The notes beneath the pieces were generated by a model. It worked only from the letters and a program-made list of their open reading frames with translations, did not search any database and was not told the origin of the DNA. From an uncultured Nitrospiraceae bacterium (GTDB lineage Bacteria > Nitrospirota > Thermodesulfovibrionia > Thermodesulfovibrionales > Dissulfurispiraceae), in contig CAVSHF010000003.1 in assembly GCA_963727805.1 (NCBI GenBank), positions 949,698 to 1,013,697 of the forward strand: DNA of 64,000 nt. The letters are read 5' to 3'. The position numbers and the translations under genes were made by a program. This document shows, one piece after another, positions 6,313-44,986 of the stretch. Each line of letters starts with the position of its first letter. Position 1 is the first letter of the stretch.

Positions 6313-6819
6313 TTAAGCAGCAGTTTTTCTCTGAACGCATATGATATTCCACTCCTTTAGTTTATCAATGGTCAAATTTATGGCTTTCTCGATGTTGTCA
6401 TTAACAATGTCAGACATTTCAAGTCCAAAGGTGTGATCGGCCGCGGCCGGCTGGATGCCGATCAGGCAAAGATGGGAAGGCATGGATCCCCTCAGGTTGG
6501 CAGCTGTAAGGAGATCGGCAAGACCGAGATTATGCAGCGAAACCTTCGGGAAGATGAGAGCCGCTATTTCGTTGTCTTCGATGATTCCTACATAGCCCGG
6601 CTCTTTACCGAAATCCATGGCGTCGACGATGAGGACTTTATCGACGCTTTCGAAAAGAGGGAGGAGGTCGAGGCCCAGCGTACCGCCATCAACGATCTGA
6701 ATCCCAGGAGAACAGGCATATCGCTCTTTGATGGTATTGACCACGTGGACCCCGACCTGCTCATCTTTAAGCAGAATATTTCCCAGTCCTAAAAGTGCTG
6801 CTGACAAATTAATGACCAT
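6313..6819 (-). CDS. hyaD: [NiFe]-hydrogenase maturation endopeptidase
   Basis: 168 aa. Contains GNILLKDEQVGVHVV, DGGTLGLDLLP and LIVDAMDFG motifs. It overlaps the cytochrome b gene by 11 nt and is the last gene of the hydrogenase operon. Confidence 0.85.
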   Translation of the reverse strand: MVINLSAALLGLGNILLKDEQVGVHVVNTIKERYACSPGIQIVDGGTLGLDLLPLFESVDKVLIVDAMDFGKEPGYVGIIEDNEIAALIFPKVSLHNLGLADLLTAANLRGSMPSHLCLIGIQPAAADHTFGLEMSDIVNDNIEKAINLTIDKLKEWNIICVQRKTAA

Positions 6820-7453
6820 CCTCCATATTTTTATAACCGCTAAACATAGAGCTCATCAAACCATTCCTCTCGATGAGGTCATTGTGCCACGAGATGTATA
6901 TATGAACGATCACGAAAAGGCCGATGACCCACATAATCAAGTGGTGGACAAGCCTCAGATAGGCAACATTCATCAACCCCAGCGACCAGCCCCCGAGCAT
7001 TGTCCAAATCGCTCCACCCCCATGAGCCAACGACAACATGGCAAAGCCTGTGACTATCTGGAAGATGTAAAGACAGAACAGGAACGTGTACGAAAGTCCG
7101 GCCAACCCGGTATGTCCCGGATAGTGCGGCAGGTCCTTCCTGCAAAAAGCGTAAAACGATGCCGTACAAACCGTGTTGTCAAACCTCTCTTTGGACGTCG
7201 GGATAAACTGGTTGAGCTTTGCATACTTGTTGCCCGCAAACCACCAGTACATCCTCACTAAGACGCAGACCGTAAAGAGAAAGGCCGCGACAAAGTGAAC
7301 GAACCGCATGTAAGCCATGATCAGTGAATCGGCATCTCCATCCAAGAAGGGGGCGCCGATGTAAAACCCCGTTACGGATAGCACCACGATGCTCAACGCA
7401 ATCAGCCAGTGCGCCACTCGTACCGGGAACTCCCAAACATAGATTCGACTCAT
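6809..7453 (-). CDS. hyaC: Ni/Fe-hydrogenase b-type cytochrome subunit
   Basis: 214 aa with four predicted TM helices and conserved His residues (VRVAHW, FVHF, VHH, HIYISWHND). It lies directly downstream of the large subunit. Confidence 0.85.
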   Translation of the reverse strand: MSRIYVWEFPVRVAHWLIALSIVVLSVTGFYIGAPFLDGDADSLIMAYMRFVHFVAAFLFTVCVLVRMYWWFAGNKYAKLNQFIPTSKERFDNTVCTASFYAFCRKDLPHYPGHTGLAGLSYTFLFCLYIFQIVTGFAMLSLAHGGGAIWTMLGGWSLGLMNVAYLRLVHHLIMWVIGLFVIVHIYISWHNDLIERNGLMSSMFSGYKNMEDGH

Positions 7454-7463
7454 GGCGGCCTCC

Positions 7464-9161
7464 TTATTTCACTTCGACTTTAAAAAGCTCTTTATGTTCT
7501 GCGTCAAAGAGATGAATTGCGCAGGCCATGCAGGGATCAAAGGAATGGATTGTCCTCTGGATCTCAATAGGCTTGGAGGGGTCCGCAATCGGCGTTCCGA
7601 TAAGGGCAGCTTCAAACGGACTCTTCTGGCCTTTCGGGTCTCTCGGTCCGGCATTCCACGTTGTGGGGACGACGGCCTGGTAATTCTCGATCTTCCCATC
7701 TTTTATGACAATATAATGAGCGAGGGTGCCCCTCGGTGCATCGTGGAATCCGACGCCTTTGGCTTCTGCAGGCCAGGTTGAAGGGTCCCACTTGTCCGTA
7801 TTGGCGGTTTTCAGGTCACCCTTTTTCATGTTTGCAGCAAGCTCGCCGATCCAGTCATTTAACTTTCCGGCGATAATCGCTGTCTCAATGCCCCTTGCAG
7901 CGGTCCGGCCGAGTGTCGAGAAAAGTGCTGCCGGTCCGACTCCCAGCTTGCCAAGAACCATGTCGACGGTTTCCTTGACCTGTTTTTGTCCCGACGCATA
8001 GGCCACGAGGCATCTGGCGAGAGGACCCACTTCCATGGCCTGATCATCATATCTTGGCGTCTTAACCCAGCTGTATTTCTTGCTAGTGTCGAGAGACTCA
8101 TAAGGAGGCTTGGGTCCTGTATAGTTGGGGGTTGTTTCGCCCACATACGGATGCTTCGCCTTCGAATCGCCGCCCGAATAGCTGTACCACGAATTGTTGA
8201 TGTATTCAGTGATCTTCGCCGCATCGACAGGATATATCTTGCTCAAATCCTTGTCTTTGATGACTCCCGCTGGGAAAAAGAATTTCCCACTCGCATCGGG
8301 GAACTCACCGCACGCCAGGAAATTGTTAAAACTCCCGTGGCCAGCCCAATCCTTGTAGAACGAAGCGATCGCGAGTAGATCGGGGATATACACCTTGTTC
8401 ACAAAATCAACTGACTTCTGGGCGACTTCATTGAGGAATGCAATGCTTCCCGCATTGATGGCGTTCTGGCTGTTCGGGTCAACTGGAATGGACATACCAC
8501 CGACGAGGAATGTCTGCGGATGCGGATTTTTGGCTCCCAACAGTGCATGAGCACGGATAATGTCTCTCTGCCAGTCGAGTGCTTCGAGGTAATGGGCAAC
8601 AGCCATTAGGTTCGCTTCGGGAGGCAGCTTATATTCCTTGTGTCCCCAGTATCCGTTGGCGAAGATGCCGAGCTGGCCGCTCTCGACAAAGGCCTTGAGC
8701 TTGGCGGCGACAGACTTGAAGTAACTAACCGATGAGTTGTTCGGCCAATCTGAAATAGATGAAGCGAGGGCTGCAGTCTTTGCGGGGTCGGCCTTTAACG
8801 CGCTTACGACATCGACCCAGTCAAGGGCGTGCAGATGATAAAAATGGATTACATGGTCATGCACAGACTGGAATCCCATGATCAGGTTTCTGATTATGCG
8901 GGCGTTGTCGGGGATCGTAATGTTAAGTGCGTTTTCAACAGCCCTTATTGACGCAAGGGCATGGACCGTAGTGCAGACGCCACAAAAACGGGAAACAAAG
9001 GTCCAGGCATCTCTTGGGTCTCTGCCCTTCATCATGACTTCGACACCCCTCCACATTGTGCCCGATGCCCAGGCATCTACAATTTTGCCGCCATCGACCT
9101 GCGCTTCAACTCTTAAATGTCCTTCTATTCTTGTTATTGGATCAACGATTATTTTAGCCAT
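7464..9161 (-). CDS. hyaB: Uptake [NiFe]-hydrogenase large subunit (group 1)
   Basis: 565 aa. N-terminal RIEGHLR and RFCGVCT (Ni-binding CxxC). C-terminal DPCMACAIH followed by a 15-aa cleavable extension. Confidence 0.95.
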   Translation of the reverse strand: MAKIIVDPITRIEGHLRVEAQVDGGKIVDAWASGTMWRGVEVMMKGRDPRDAWTFVSRFCGVCTTVHALASIRAVENALNITIPDNARIIRNLIMGFQSVHDHVIHFYHLHALDWVDVVSALKADPAKTAALASSISDWPNNSSVSYFKSVAAKLKAFVESGQLGIFANGYWGHKEYKLPPEANLMAVAHYLEALDWQRDIIRAHALLGAKNPHPQTFLVGGMSIPVDPNSQNAINAGSIAFLNEVAQKSVDFVNKVYIPDLLAIASFYKDWAGHGSFNNFLACGEFPDASGKFFFPAGVIKDKDLSKIYPVDAAKITEYINNSWYSYSGGDSKAKHPYVGETTPNYTGPKPPYESLDTSKKYSWVKTPRYDDQAMEVGPLARCLVAYASGQKQVKETVDMVLGKLGVGPAALFSTLGRTAARGIETAIIAGKLNDWIGELAANMKKGDLKTANTDKWDPSTWPAEAKGVGFHDAPRGTLAHYIVIKDGKIENYQAVVPTTWNAGPRDPKGQKSPFEAALIGTPIADPSKPIEIQRTIHSFDPCMACAIHLFDAEHKELFKVEVK

Positions 9162-9174
9162 TTTTCATCTCCCT

Positions 9175-10242
9175 TTATTTTTCTTTATTTTTGCCTTTTG
9201 TGGCTGTCCTGATAGCTGCGTGAGCCGCTACGGCGGCCACTGCAACTGCCGCTATACCAAGGCCGATCTTGTCAGCGTTGGCCATAACACTCGCGCCAGG
9301 TACCTTGGGCATTCTCTTGTAGAACGGATATGCCGCGTCCCAGTTCCCCGGTGTCGAGCAGGCAATGCAGCCATGTCCGGCCATTACCGGCCAGCTCGTA
9401 CCACCGTTCCACCTGATTGTCGGACAGTTCTGATGTGCCATCGGGCCCTTGCAGCCCATCTCGTAAAGACACCATCCCTGCTTGGCCCCTTCGTCTCCCC
9501 ACGCCTTCACAAACTGCCCGGCATCAAAATGCGGACGCCTCTCACAGTTGTTGTGGATCAGTTTTCCAAAAGCAAACTTCGGACGGCCATTGCTATCCAG
9601 GGCGGGTAATGCACCAAAAGTGAGGAAATGTACTACGGTGGCGGTGAAGTTCTCTACGTTCATCGGACAACCGGCGATGTTGACGACTGTGCCGCCGATA
9701 GCTTCCTGAATACCAACATATCCACCCGGGTTTGGGGCGGCTGCGGAGAGCCCGCCGAAACAGGCACAGTTGCCTACAGCGATATTCGCCATTGCGCCGG
9801 CCGCGACTTCCTTGAGGATAGCCATCGAGGACTTCCCGGCAACGCAGCAATAGACTCCGCCGTCCTTCGAAGAGACTGCTCCCTCATAAACAGCGATATA
9901 CTGCCCCTTCTTGTTTTTCAGAATGTCCTGCAGCGATTTCTCAGCGGCTGTTCCACAAGGGGCCATGAGAGTCTCATGGTAATCAAGCGAGATGATATCA
10001 AGCACAATCTGCCCGATAGTCGGCTTTGTCGCCCTCAAGACTGATTCGGAATCACCGGTACATTCCGCAAAGTGCATCCAGACAACCGACGGTCTCTGCT
10101 TCTTTTCCAGGGCTTCGGCGATCTGCGGGACCGCTGAAGAGCTCAAACCTAAAGTCGCAGCTGTTCCAGCGCAAAACTTCAGGAAGTCCCTGCGCGACAC
10201 CCCTCGTCGCGTCAGATAAGAATAAATGCTCTCGTTCTCCAT
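9175..10242 (-). CDS. hyaA: Uptake [NiFe]-hydrogenase small subunit with Tat signal
   Basis: 355 aa. Twin-arginine motif SRRDFLKF, Fe-S cluster Cys ligands (ECTGDSE, GNCACFGG, CPTIRWN, GHGCIAC) and a C-terminal membrane anchor. Confidence 0.95.
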   Translation of the reverse strand: MENESIYSYLTRRGVSRRDFLKFCAGTAATLGLSSSAVPQIAEALEKKQRPSVVWMHFAECTGDSESVLRATKPTIGQIVLDIISLDYHETLMAPCGTAAEKSLQDILKNKKGQYIAVYEGAVSSKDGGVYCCVAGKSSMAILKEVAAGAMANIAVGNCACFGGLSAAAPNPGGYVGIQEAIGGTVVNIAGCPMNVENFTATVVHFLTFGALPALDSNGRPKFAFGKLIHNNCERRPHFDAGQFVKAWGDEGAKQGWCLYEMGCKGPMAHQNCPTIRWNGGTSWPVMAGHGCIACSTPGNWDAAYPFYKRMPKVPGASVMANADKIGLGIAAVAVAAVAAHAAIRTATKGKNKEK

Positions 10243-10344
10243 ACCCGTCCTCCTGTGACGAAATTTAACTCTACAATATAGAGTTAATGATGTCGATATC
10301 CATATGAAGCGAAAACGCCGAAAAATAGGCCTCCATTCTCAAAT

Positions 10345-10838
10345 TGGAGAGAGGCAGTGGGAATCGGACCCACTCTCGGTTCATTAATATATGGCAAGCG
10401 CTCAATTGCCTTGAACCGTGATGCTGGTTTTGCACACCAGATGAGGCACCAGCCCCATGCCCCCCGGAAACAGCTCAGAGTAGAGACGGTCATCTCCTAT
10501 TACTTCATCCATACGATGGAAACAGTAGCTTATTTGACCAGATATGGTTTCCGAACCGGAATGGCGAAACTGAAGAGTATTCATATTTTCATTCAATTCG
10601 CCTTTATTGATACGTCGTGGGTAGTTGTCTCAGAGAGTGTACTATATTTAAGGCCTATGCCTATGCCTATGCCTATGATAGCCCGGTGGATCATTAGCAG
10701 TTAAATTAATATAGATGATGTCAATATGTAAAATAGATTAATTGAATAGTTTAAACTGGAGTTATAGATTTGTCCCCACAATCTAAAGATGGATGGATGA
10801 TGACTGGCTGAGATCCAAGCGTTACATTAAAGTTGCAG
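10345..10838. repeat. Copy 1 of a ~495-nt paralogous noncoding element (candidate structured RNA or long leader upstream of the hydrogenase operon)
   Basis: Aligns by eye along its whole length with 44491-44986 in the same orientation. Shared hairpins include CTGGT-TTTGCAC-ACCAG (10424-10440) and CCAT-ACG-ATGG (10509-10519). On the minus strand it ends in GTGGG-TCCGATT-CCCAC...TCCA. It lies 103 nt upstream of the hyaA start. Confidence 0.7.
10653..10676. repeat. Hexanucleotide microsatellite (GCCTAT)x4 inside element copy 1
   Basis: Four perfect tandem GCCTAT units. The homologous position in copy 2 carries a shorter, degenerate version (gcctatgcccatgtctat). Confidence 0.9.
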
Positions 10839-42401: not shown

Positions 42402-43223
42402 TTAAGATATCTTCGCTGCCTTGGCGATCGGTGGGGTCGGGATATTCGAGCCGTGACGTTCGATGCAGTTGCTCTGAGCAGTGATACCGTAGTTTGCAGA
42501 AGATACAGTACCATTCGTTTCGTACTTGCCGTCCTTCCAGGCATTCAAAAGTTTGACAACATGATAGACCGTGCTTGCGGTGACGCGGGCACAACGGTCC
42601 TTTCGTTCGGGGCTCTTAAGATCTTTGTCTGCTGCCTTCATCCATTTGCAGACCGATATGTGGCAAAAAGGAGAATCGCTGACTGTTTTAGGAAGGACAG
42701 TTTTGATCCTGGGATTGCTGGGCGTGAAGATCGGCATCTGCGCATTGGCATACCAATCAAGCATTTCGCCTCCCATCAGCGCGCCATCTTCAGACCCGGC
42801 TATCCGAGGCTTATTATCATATTGGCCACTATATTGGCTCCCATAGGCGCGCCGCAGATGGTCCCCCATCCCATGATTCCACCTTCGAGAAGGAGCAAGA
42901 GTCTATATGAAAAGACTTGTATGGCTCTCCAACTTTCTCTCTCAGCTGAGTGAAGACGCTGCTGATCACGGCCGCGCCGCAAAGAGTCGACACCATTCAT
43001 TATGGGCAAGTGCAGCGGTTTGCGCAGGGTCAAGCTTCACATACGGCCATGGCCATTTTTCTGTCGGCCCTTCCCTGGCTTCCGCGTTAGAAAGTAAGTT
43101 CCCGAGCTGATCGGCAGTCGAGCCGATAGCTAATAATCCTGCACCTGCAATGAACTTTCTTCTTGAAACCGTGTCGTTTCCGGATACCTTTTTTTTAATC
43201 CTCCTTTGTATGAAATTATTCAA
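42402..43223 (-). pseudogene. Tat-exported C_GCAxxG_C_C / split-Soret-cytochrome-like redox protein, disrupted by three frameshifts
   Basis: The N-terminal piece (42966-43223) has SRRKFIAGAGLLA and KWPWPYVKLDP. A frame-0 piece reads CGAAVISSVFTQLREKVGEPYKSF. A frame-1 piece reads GGIMGWGTICGAPMGA. The C-terminal piece (42402-42869) reads LDWYANAQMP...FCHISVCKW...RCARVTAS. The reading frame moves the same way three times and returns to the original frame. Confidence 0.65.
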
Positions 43224-43286: not shown

Positions 43287-44375
43287 CTAGTCCTTCATTG
43301 GCTTGATGAACATGAAGTAGACCATCGTCCAGTTGCCGAGGATTATAAATATGGTCGCCACGATGCTTGATAGGGCGAGGGATGAAACGCCGGTCAACGC
43401 ATGACCTACGGTGCATCCCCCTGCAGTCGCTGCTCCAAAGCCCATAACGAGGCTGCCAAGGAAAACCCGTATGATTTCATTCGCCGGAGGGGCCTGTAAT
43501 TTGAATTCGCCGAGTCCTTTGGCGCTAATGTAAGCGCCTAGTGGAATACCCAAAATATATAAAGCACTCCAGGTGCCCTTGAAAATCCCCCAAAAATTAA
43601 ACATAGGATCGAATTTGGACATACTGTCTCCCATCGTCACGGCTAGGAATGCCTCTGCCGTCGGTCCCGCCGCCGAAAGGCCTCGTGTCTGCCCTCCCCA
43701 GTAATTTGATGCCCAGAGCGCAAAGATAAGGATCACGCCGATCATGGCGCCGGTGAGGGACCATGAATAGCCTTTCCTCGGTCCCTTGGCAAAGGGCTTC
43801 CCTTTCAGGACAATCGGAATGATGATGAGAGCGATAACGCCGATGACTGCCCATTTCATCGATAACCCGCCAAAGATATCCCACAACGCAGGGTTGAAGA
43901 CGGCCTCATCGCCGCTGCCAATCGAAACTTTGTAGCTCTTCAGGAATTCCATGACTGGTTTGAGGGGACCATGATAGGTAGCGATAAGAGAAGAGGCAAA
44001 ACCGAGAGTGGCCACGAGAGCGGATGTATAGCCTTCTCCCACACGGTATATTATGCCGCTACCGCAACCGCCGGCCATCACAATGCCAAGTCCGAAGACA
44101 TAGCCGCCGACCATATTGGCGATAACATTGAAGGATTGCCTCCTGAGACCGAAATCACCCATAAATCCGAAGTCTTCAAGCAGATTCGCGCCAATGATTG
44201 CGATCAAAAGTGCCAGCAGATATGACCGGAATAAGGTAAAGTCTTCGAGAAATATGATGTCTCTAAAAGCCGAATTCATGCAGTAACGACCTCTCTGAAG
44301 AACAAAACCGAAAAGAATACCGACAAAGAGCCCACTTGCCAATACCATAAAACTTGCCTGCTGGACTTCCTCCAT
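43287..44375 (-). CDS. yeeE: YeeE/YedE-family sulfur (thiosulfate) transport membrane protein
   Basis: 362 aa, about 9 TM helices. Conserved Cys loops GRYCMNSAFRD, GGCGSGIIYR and GGCTVGHALTG. Confidence 0.85.
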   Translation of the reverse strand: MEEVQQASFMVLASGLFVGILFGFVLQRGRYCMNSAFRDIIFLEDFTLFRSYLLALLIAIIGANLLEDFGFMGDFGLRRQSFNVIANMVGGYVFGLGIVMAGGCGSGIIYRVGEGYTSALVATLGFASSLIATYHGPLKPVMEFLKSYKVSIGSGDEAVFNPALWDIFGGLSMKWAVIGVIALIIIPIVLKGKPFAKGPRKGYSWSLTGAMIGVILIFALWASNYWGGQTRGLSAAGPTAEAFLAVTMGDSMSKFDPMFNFWGIFKGTWSALYILGIPLGAYISAKGLGEFKLQAPPANEIIRVFLGSLVMGFGAATAGGCTVGHALTGVSSLALSSIVATIFIILGNWTMVYFMFIKPMKD

Positions 44376-44490
44376 AGAGCTTCTCCTTTTTCTTCAATTA
44401 ATCATTTGTGTGGCAATGCCACGACTACCGAATTATCTCCTTTCGTCCATATGACGAACGACCAAGCCGACTTTTTCAAAAAAGGAACAA

Positions 44491-44986
44491 TGGAGGGGAG
44501 CAGTGGGAATCGAACCCACCACGGCACCTTATGAGTGCGACACACTGCTTTGACGCCCGTATGTCTTTAGCCGTGACACTGGTTTTGCAGACCAGGTGAG
44601 GCGCCAACCCCGTGCCCCCCGGGAACAGCTCACAAAAGAGACGGCTCCCGCCTTTTACGCTATCCGTACAACGGAAACAGCAGGTTATTTGACTTGATAT
44701 GGGTTCCGAACTGGAACGGCGAAACTGAAGGGTATTCATATCTTCATTCGGTTCGCCTTTTTTGATACGTCGTGGGAAGTTGTCTCGGAGAGTGTCCTAT
44801 ATTGAAGGCCTATGCCCATGTCTATGATAGCTTGGTGGATCATTTGCAGATAATTTAGTATTGCTTCAATATATATGTCAAATTGTTTTTGTGGATGGCT
44901 TAAACGGGAGTAATAGATTTGTCGCTACAATCCAAAAACTGGCGGACGCCGAATGGCGGAGAATGCGGGCGTAACATTAAAGTTAC
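44491..44986. repeat. Copy 2 of the ~495-nt paralogous noncoding element (upstream of yeeE)
   Basis: Aligns with 10345-10838. Hairpins CTGGT-TTTGCAG-ACCAG (44579-44595) and CCGT-ACA-ACGG (44664-44674). On the minus strand it ends in GTGGG-TTCGATT-CCCAC-TGCTCCCC-T-CCA. It lies 116 nt upstream of the yeeE start. Confidence 0.7.

Follow-up and report, generated by a model that had tools for sequence, protein, structure and literature searches.

The selC* tRNA-Cys was defined by Mukai et al. (2017) as a tRNA-Sec-like body with U73 and a GCA or UCA anticodon (PMC5389517). Its hosts are anaerobes in Firmicutes, Thermodesulfobacteria, Nitrospirae (including Thermodesulfovibrio) and deltaproteobacteria, and it always occurs beside a complete selenocysteine (Sec) apparatus (PMC5389517). 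U73 together with GCA forms the identity set of cysteinyl-tRNA synthetase (CysRS; PMC5389517), and charging with cysteine by this enzyme was shown for members from Desulfomonile and Desulfotomaculum (PMC5389517, PMC11415595). According to PMC11415595 and PMC13582414, which cite Vargas-Rodriguez et al. (2018), the GCA member of D. nigrificans is delivered by SelB, rejected by EF-Tu and reads UGA programmed by a selenocysteine insertion sequence (SECIS) as cysteine; according to the same papers, both the GCA and the UCA forms decode SECIS-UGA as cysteine. A selC*-selB* pairing has been published for two deltaproteobacterial orders (PMC5389517). Here we describe two loci in a 64,000-nt stretch of DNA (the window) from an uncultured Nitrospiraceae bacterium (assembly GCA_963727805.1, contig CAVSHF010000003.1, positions 949,698 to 1,013,697) that are very likely real tRNA genes of this selC* tRNA-Cys or tRNAReC class and would serve a pathway that reads UGA as cysteine. 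With their leaders and their occurrence in two copies, they are a fresh member of a class described in 2017-2018.

Both copies lie on the minus strand, and RNAfold, run on each alone, returns a cloverleaf as the minimum free energy (MFE) fold. Its acceptor stem has 8 bp, the D stem has 5-6 bp and closes a 4-nt loop, and the anticodon loop reads C/G-U-GCA-AA; a long variable arm follows, then a T stem of 5 bp that closes a 7-nt loop, and lastly U73 and CCA. The marks common to the two copies are the anticodon GCA, U73, an encoded CCA and a D arm of the tRNA-Sec type. Together with G1:C72, the anticodon and U73 mark the RNA for cysteine. An earlier note, made from the letters of this DNA, had pointed out a T arm, a 3' acceptor strand, a discriminator U, CCA and an anticodon arm with GCA, and these sequences are confirmed in both copies. 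On the minus strand, the 3' end of copy 2 (44519-44491) reads GTGGG-TTCGATT-CCCAC-TGCTCCCC-T-CCA and that of copy 1 (10373-10345) GTGGG-TCCGATT-CCCAC-TGCCTCTC-T-CCA, and the anticodon hairpins are CTGGT-CTGCAAA-ACCAG and CTGGT-GTGCAAA-ACCAG, respectively. The same note had missed a 5' acceptor strand and judged that the element was not an intact tRNA. The exact complements GGGGAGC and GAGAGGC are indeed absent, but the strand exists: it is GGGGGGCA, which pairs with the 3' strands UGCUCCCC and UGCCUCUC at eight of eight positions, G-U wobbles allowed. The judgement has thus to be reversed, since the cloverleaf is full and is borne out by covariation in 75 distinct sequences. Aligned end to end, the Rfam tRNA-Sec family (RF01852) scores 46.1 bits with copy 2 (E = 7e-8) and 44.7 bits with copy 1 (E = 1.4e-7), slightly below its gathering cut-off of 47 bits; the shortfall is due to 33-41 inserted nt in the variable arm. 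ARAGORN, proposed as a check, makes no call at either locus, probably owing to the size of the variable arm, and reports one standard one-piece transfer-messenger RNA (tmRNA) elsewhere in the genome.

Membership in a wider family is evident from a covariance model (R1) built from 48 relatives with the window copies left out. It matches copy 2 with 91.3 bits (E = 5e-19) and copy 1 with 75.7 bits (E = 1.9e-15), its sole matches within the window; applied to the genome's own tRNAs, it gives 57.5 bits for the true selC and 29.6 bits for a tRNA-Ser. These E values, like those of RF01852, exclude the chance resemblance that had been left as one explanation. Covariation was assessed in a model-guided alignment of 89 matches, amounting to 75 distinct sequences, from Thermodesulfovibrionia (Nitrospirota). 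Standard pairs fill 97.7% of the pair cells, compared with 48-64% after a shift of the partners by one to three columns; changes on both sides occur in 15 of 28 pairs, and none of 500 shuffles reaches any observed measure. All five helices covary, including six of the eight acceptor pairs. Because two sequences (L044 and L062) have G:C in place of A:U at the eighth acceptor pair, we favour a drawing with 8 acceptor and 5 T-stem pairs; the 7/6 alternative obtained with RNAalifold would give an A-C mismatch in L044 and is less likely. The anticodon loop CUGCAAA is kept in 72 of the 75 distinct sequences, the tail UCCA in 73 and the T loop UUCGAUU in 66.

When 60 relatives were searched at the DNA level, the tRNA part turned up in many genera of the order, and in a sample of the phylum, matches at the selC* level were confined to the organism's own class and one other lineage. 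A pattern for the junction of D arm and anticodon arm, scanned against the genomes of 185,579 species, gave 71 loci, 68 of them titled Nitrospirota, Nitrospira-type, Thermodesulfovibrionales or Dissulfurispiraceae; the remaining three comprise two titled 'uncultured bacterium' and one Woesearchaeota metagenome-assembled genome (MAG). The selC* tRNA of that last locus (L101, JAWABG010000076.1, 'Candidatus Woesearchaeota archaeon') has the same sequence as in the Nitrospirota MAGs L054 and L089, and its assignment to Woesearchaeota is probably a binning error. Forms of 130-131 nt from the organism's own genus are labelled Dissulfurispiraceae.

Total lengths of the tRNA in the family run from 94 to 168 nt, with 40 of the 75 distinct sequences at 98 nt or less and 25 at 113 nt or more. 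In the own genus and several others the variable arm forms a three-way junction, in which a basal stem that covaries bears two hairpins, the first variable and the second short, with AAGG(A/U)G as a recurring motif; the largest arms, of about 70-95 nt, occur in tRNAs of 141-168 nt (Table). A second, lower-scoring tRNA copy is found a few kb off in four loci (L037, L067, L072 and L090). In the papers on the class that were consulted, the supplementary Nitrospirae drawings of PMC5389517 excepted, we found no description of a branched variable arm, a conserved leader or a divergent copy.

Comparison of the two window copies delimits the conserved element. Pairwise identity is 68% in the promoter block (copy 2, 44970-44852), 81% in the leader (44851-44621), 84% in the 5' half of the tRNA, 39% in the variable arm and 86% in the T arm, 3' acceptor strand and UCCA, against 37% in the far-upstream flank and 37% in the 50 nt past the CCA. 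The earlier observation that homology stops at the CCA is thereby upheld. The 9-mer TCATATGGA occurs on the minus strand at 44449-44459 and 10303-10311, about 30-40 nt past the CCA; the sequence around it is unrelated, and the 9-mer may reflect chance or a shared site. Copy 2 agrees with the family consensus throughout, including anticodon loop, T loop and tail. Copy 1 departs from it with G32 (family C32) and C55 (family U55), two G-U pairs in the acceptor stem and a variable arm devoid of the second hairpin. Its loop GUGCAAA is unique among the 75 distinct sequences and its T loop UCCGAUU is shared with one other; among the 89 matches, the only lower R1 scores belong to four second copies in other loci. 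Copy 1 keeps the five helices, and all its differences in the acceptor stem still pair.

Several other identities were considered for these loci and set aside. The earlier note had allowed for a relic tRNA 3' end left by integration at an attachment (att) site. Here the tRNA is complete and its 3' end is common to no other tRNA of the genome, which excludes such a relic; a search with either 29-nt 3' end returned nothing within 4 substitutions elsewhere in 3.89 Mb. The 3' end of the genome's tRNA-Cys differs, so that an att relic of this canonical tRNA was likewise dismissed. As a candidate for a permuted tmRNA or a tRNA-like 3' end the element was also rejected, the match to RF04321 (tmRNA_permuted) covering only the 17-nt T arm (11.3 bits, E = 8.6). 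An 87-aa open reading frame (ORF; 44476-44739) spans leader and tRNA, but a 4-nt deletion in one relative (G004) and a 20-nt insertion in another (G001) disrupt its frame, and the differences between the copies are mostly non-synonymous.

Each tRNA is preceded by a promoter block and a leader. The promoter block marks where the homology between the copies begins and is the best-conserved upstream block in the genus alignment; in copy 2, its TTGACA-18-TAAATT scores 10 of 12 in a promoter scan. According to nhmmer and the DNA search of 60 relatives, the leader occurs in the own genus only, and there solely in front of the selC* tRNA. It is under constraint, because its 81% identity is retained while variable arm and flanks are at background. 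Its one sizeable indel is a 6-nt alignment gap, where the CATAGG repeat of copy 1 (10645-10676, minus) has one unit more than that of copy 2. Short hairpins are shared between the leaders (GGCGAA...UUCGCC, GUUCC...GGAAC and UCCGU-UGU-ACGGA), and one leader hairpin shows a compensatory G:C to A:U change between the copies. Three further readings of the leader were rejected: it folds no more stably than shuffled sequence (z = -0.03 for copy 2, and -0.36), Rfam offers no family for it within an E limit of 10, and the hairpin of a would-be terminator directly before the tRNA (44653-44639) is not kept in copy 1. We infer that the conserved upstream region represents the promoter and the 5' region of a transcript that would carry the tRNA and the downstream genes. 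The suggestion that the element is a tRNA-mimic module on a larger RNA thus fails as it was worded and survives in a weak form, in that the tRNA probably shares its transcript with the conserved leader (about 230 nt).

Downstream of copy 2 lies a YeeE/TsuA-like sulfur transporter gene, and downstream of copy 1 a [NiFe] hydrogenase operon. No terminator-like site was predicted between either tRNA and its downstream gene, and yeeE is probably co-transcribed with copy 2. On NCBIfam models the transporter reaches 245 bits with TsuA and 49 bits with seleno_YedE, both below cut-off. The hydrogenase large subunit is of the Cys type (DPCMAC, TGC codons, no in-frame TGA); facultative Sec insertion into it was considered and rejected, as the protein is of the plain Cys type and no obvious SECIS-like hairpin follows the Cys codons. 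In the own genus the order is rhodaneses, leader-tRNA, yeeE, and then the [NiFe] hydrogenase or a C_GCAxxG gene, and tRNA-yeeE also recurs in the genus relatives L093 and L100. This arrangement is split in the present genome: copy 2 stands before yeeE and a broken C_GCAxxG gene, and copy 1 after two rhodaneses and before the hydrogenase operon. The broken gene, of the C_GCAxxG_C_C type with a twin-arginine translocation (Tat) signal (42402-43223, minus, downstream of yeeE), consists of at least two ORFs of 85 and 155 aa, whereas relatives (L100, L062) have a single gene of about 261-302 aa.

Genes for selenium metabolism recur around the family as a whole. We clustered the ORFs around the 75 family loci and named the clusters with Pfam and NCBIfam. 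Upstream and mostly on the same strand, 28 loci have a selenium-metabolism-associated LysR regulator (NF040786, 309.8 bits, above cut-off); rhodaneses (13 loci) and a SelD-like protein (7 loci) are also mostly upstream. Downstream are YedF (TIGR03527, above cut-off; 23 loci), a full-length SelB that starts about 35 nt past the CCA (16 loci), a C_GCAxxG_C_C protein (14 loci) and a YedE/YeeE-type transporter (8 loci). In three of five MAGs tested, the tRNA-adjacent SelB is a second copy, with a partial second match in a fourth. It is more divergent than the other copy at L106, L108 (both minus) and L111 (plus), in the Thermodesulfovibrionales genomes G196, G197 and G199, which have a canonical SelB elsewhere. 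Nitrospirota therefore have a SelB*-type partner too.

The present genome contains the selenocysteine apparatus itself, with a true selC (C5:831772-831869, 69.1 bits with RF01852, G73) and with selA, one selB and two selD genes above NCBIfam cut-offs. Both selD genes (C3:482960-483883 and C5:157506-158420) are interrupted by an in-frame TGA, which makes selenophosphate synthesis itself dependent on UGA recoding; next to the second lies a LysR gene of the selenium-associated type (C5:156495-157376). A normal tRNA-Cys(GCA), a normal CysRS and a tmRNA are present as well. This genome encodes one SelB, the canonical orthologue; selB was found in 59 of 60 sampled relatives, and each of these likewise has a single one. 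The selC*-selB*-cysS* operon subtype of Syntrophobacterales/Desulfobacterales, in which the tRNA is directly followed by a second selB and, in one subgroup, by a cysS devoid of the anticodon domain, does not occur at the two loci, which have yeeE and the hydrogenase downstream in a genome with one SelB. A second CysRS-like gene (C3:1748741-1749952; L116:4236-5456, minus) encodes 406 aa without the anticodon-binding domain; its product scores nearer CysRS than MshC, and it adjoins nifS and nifU. We rejected it as a dedicated CysRS*, given that it occurs in 22 of 61 genomes and that 8 genomes have both it and the tRNA, compared with 9.7 expected.

Table. Features of the two tRNA loci in the window, and family members with very large variable arms (positions of the latter given by locus)
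Feature	Position	Strand	Evidence or remark
Copy 2, complete selC*/tRNAReC-type tRNA-Cys(GCA), 130 nt	44491..44620	minus	RF01852, MFE fold, model R1, family consensus
Copy 2, 5' acceptor strand GGGGGGCA	44620-44613	minus	
Copy 2, D arm	44611-44598	minus	
Copy 2, anticodon arm	44595-44579	minus	anticodon GCA 44588-44586
Copy 2, variable arm, 58 nt	44577-44520	minus	
Copy 2, T arm	44519-44503	minus	
Copy 2, 3' acceptor strand	44502-44495	minus	
Copy 2, U73 and CCA	44494-44491	minus	
Copy 2, leader, about 230 nt, probably transcribed	44621..44851	minus	81% identity to copy 1 leader
Copy 2, promoter block	44852..44970	minus	TTGACA-18-TAAATT at 44881-44852, repeated ATCTAT boxes before it
Copy 1, divergent paralogue of copy 2 tRNA, 121 nt	10345..10465	minus	RF01852, model R1
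Copy 1, 5' acceptor strand GGGGGGCA	10465-10458	minus	
Copy 1, anticodon GCA	10433-10431	minus	
Copy 1, variable arm, 49 nt	10422-10374	minus	
Copy 1, T arm	10373-10357	minus	
Copy 1, 3' acceptor strand	10356-10349	minus	
Copy 1, UCCA	10348-10345	minus	
Copy 1, leader	10466-10702	minus	alignment, segment identities, nhmmer match
Copy 1, promoter block	10703-10820	minus	alignment, segment identities, nhmmer match
YeeE/TsuA-like sulfur transporter gene	43287..44375	minus	Pfam Sulf_transp 222.8 bits; 115 nt past copy 2 CCA
[NiFe] hydrogenase operon (small subunit, large subunit, cytochrome b, HycI protease)	6313..10242	minus	Pfam; 102 nt past copy 1 CCA
Relatives with variable arms of about 70-95 nt (tRNAs 141-168 nt)	L080:4947-5114, L064:2146-2306, L072:2979-3136, L037:6175-6327, L051:17-164, L061:6420-6565, L092:2304-2449, L090:3663-3803		

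By analogy with the tested members of the class, we propose the following course of events. The tRNA would be transcribed from the conserved promoter some 230 nt upstream, probably in one transcript with the downstream genes; RNase P would remove the leader, and the encoded CCA would become the mature 3' end. Ordinary CysRS would attach cysteine, and the 13-bp acceptor/T helix would keep the tRNA from EF-Tu and hand it to the genome's single SelB, which would place it at SECIS-marked UGA, so that cysteine is inserted when Sec-tRNA-Sec is scarce. If this is true, the two UGA-interrupted selD genes could be translated before any selenocysteine exists. Since standard tRNA finders miss the gene, genomes of this lineage are without an annotated tRNA that may decide between Cys and Sec at UGA, and the reading of every predicted selenoprotein in these bacteria is affected.

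Alternatively, the tRNA shape could act mainly in cis. Lying in the 5' untranslated regions of yeeE and of the hydrogenase operon, it would signal processing or stability through an RNase P cut, or serve as a protein-binding decoy, with the leader as the true functional unit. Promoter and leader are conserved like the tRNA core (81% in the leader, 84-86% in the core) between flanks at background, and the downstream genes start 102-115 nt past the CCA with no predicted terminator between. Moreover, the leader outlives the tRNA in two relatives of the same genus, G003 (L018) and G004 (L013), where promoter and leader are kept and the tRNA has decayed, its T arm being missing in G003 and broken in G004; G003 retains a hydrogenase small-subunit gene behind. 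We nevertheless hold this explanation to be unlikely. Outside the genus the same tRNA occurs without the leader and beside quite different genes, so the tRNA must have an independent function; the near-invariance of anticodon loop, U73 and CCA is more than processing alone would demand, and the leader folds no better than shuffled sequence. It is similarly improbable that the enlarged branched arm adds a functional domain and works together with the leader, which would make the unit more than a spare decoder, namely a sensor acting in cis or an RNA for docking. Such a device, if real, could couple the charging state with regard to cysteine or selenium, or the binding of SelB, to expression of the thiosulfate-transporter and hydrogenase operons.

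A tRNA-Sec with a sense anticodon would have much the same body, including the D arm read by SelA and a long variable arm, the main determinant for seryl-tRNA synthetase (SerRS). SerRS would then charge the tRNA, SelA convert Ser to Sec and SelB insert it at UGC/UGU, as reported for Aeromonas salmonicida, for which PMC11415595, citing Mukai 2016, documents a GCA tRNA-Sec that places Sec at UGC; the operon that directly follows copy 1, too, encodes a [NiFe] hydrogenase with Sec forms among its relatives. This hydrogenase is, however, of the plain Cys type with no obvious SECIS-like hairpin past the TGC codons, and U73, present in 73 of 75 family members in contrast to G73 in the genome's selC, completes with GCA the CysRS identity set (PMC5389517), which makes such a tRNA-Sec quite unlikely. 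That one or both copies are pseudogenes, drifting remnants of a once useful extra tRNA, might be suspected from C55, G32, the two acceptor G-U pairs, the remodelled variable arm and the low R1 score of copy 1, and from the clearly decayed versions in G003 and G004. With copy 2 at consensus in every conserved position and scoring like intact relatives, and with all five helices kept in copy 1, we find this very unlikely.

Some observations weigh against a selC* tRNA-Cys that reads UGA as cysteine, the interpretation we prefer. The tRNA gene was found in 27 of 61 relatives, and this occurrence, with its loss in the two leader-keeping relatives, marks it as dispensable. In the window it is accompanied by genes for a thiosulfate-type YeeE/TsuA transporter, for rhodaneses and for a Cys-type hydrogenase, with no clear selenium genes, and a SelB* paralogue is absent from this genome. 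Copy 1 may be losing function or decaying, to judge from its bases at C32 and U55, otherwise near-invariant in the family. Those members of the class that have been tested belong to Firmicutes and Desulfobacterota, and their variable arms are ordinary; the 58-nt branched arm may alter recognition by CysRS or SelB. The loci add to the class a lineage in which a very large structured insertion is tolerated, or used, by the body of the tRNA, and a leader under clear constraint; the divergent second copy and the decayed copies of sister species are natural 'experiments' on the purpose of the tRNA.

Among known systems, the window tRNAs most resemble selC*/tRNAReC, with which they share the tRNA-Sec-like body with its 8-bp acceptor stem, an acceptor/T helix within the 12-13 bp of the class, the long variable arm, U73, GCA and the encoded CCA. 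The host, an anaerobe with a full selA/B/C/D set, belongs to a lineage already listed for the class (Nitrospirae, Thermodesulfovibrio), and some relatives have a second selB after the tRNA. They are drawn as 8/5, unlike the deltaproteobacterial selC* (8/4 with a bulge), and differ from described selC* in the branched variable arm of 49-58 nt, the total length of 121-130 nt, the genus-specific promoter and leader of about 350 nt, the two copies in one genome and the lack of selB* or a linked cysS*. Bacterial tRNA-Sec (RF01852), the best Rfam match of both copies, has the same 13-bp acceptor/T helix, long D stem with 4-nt loop and long variable arm, but UCA in place of GCA and G73 in place of U73. 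With the genome's canonical tRNA-Cys(GCA) they share the anticodon, U73, G1:C72 and the anticodon loop CUGCAAA, whereas that tRNA has 75 nt, a 7/5 helix and a short variable loop and is not among the R1 matches. The GCA tRNA-Sec of A. salmonicida likewise combines a Sec-type body with a GCA anticodon, but puts Sec at targeted UGC codons according to PMC11415595 (citing Mukai et al. 2016), and the family described here keeps U73, the cysteine mark, nearly without exception. Two-piece (permuted) tmRNAs and viral tRNA-like 3' ends also close a longer conserved RNA with a T arm, a 3' acceptor strand and CCA; unlike permuted tmRNA, the window copies possess a full anticodon arm and D arm, in a genome with a normal one-piece tmRNA.

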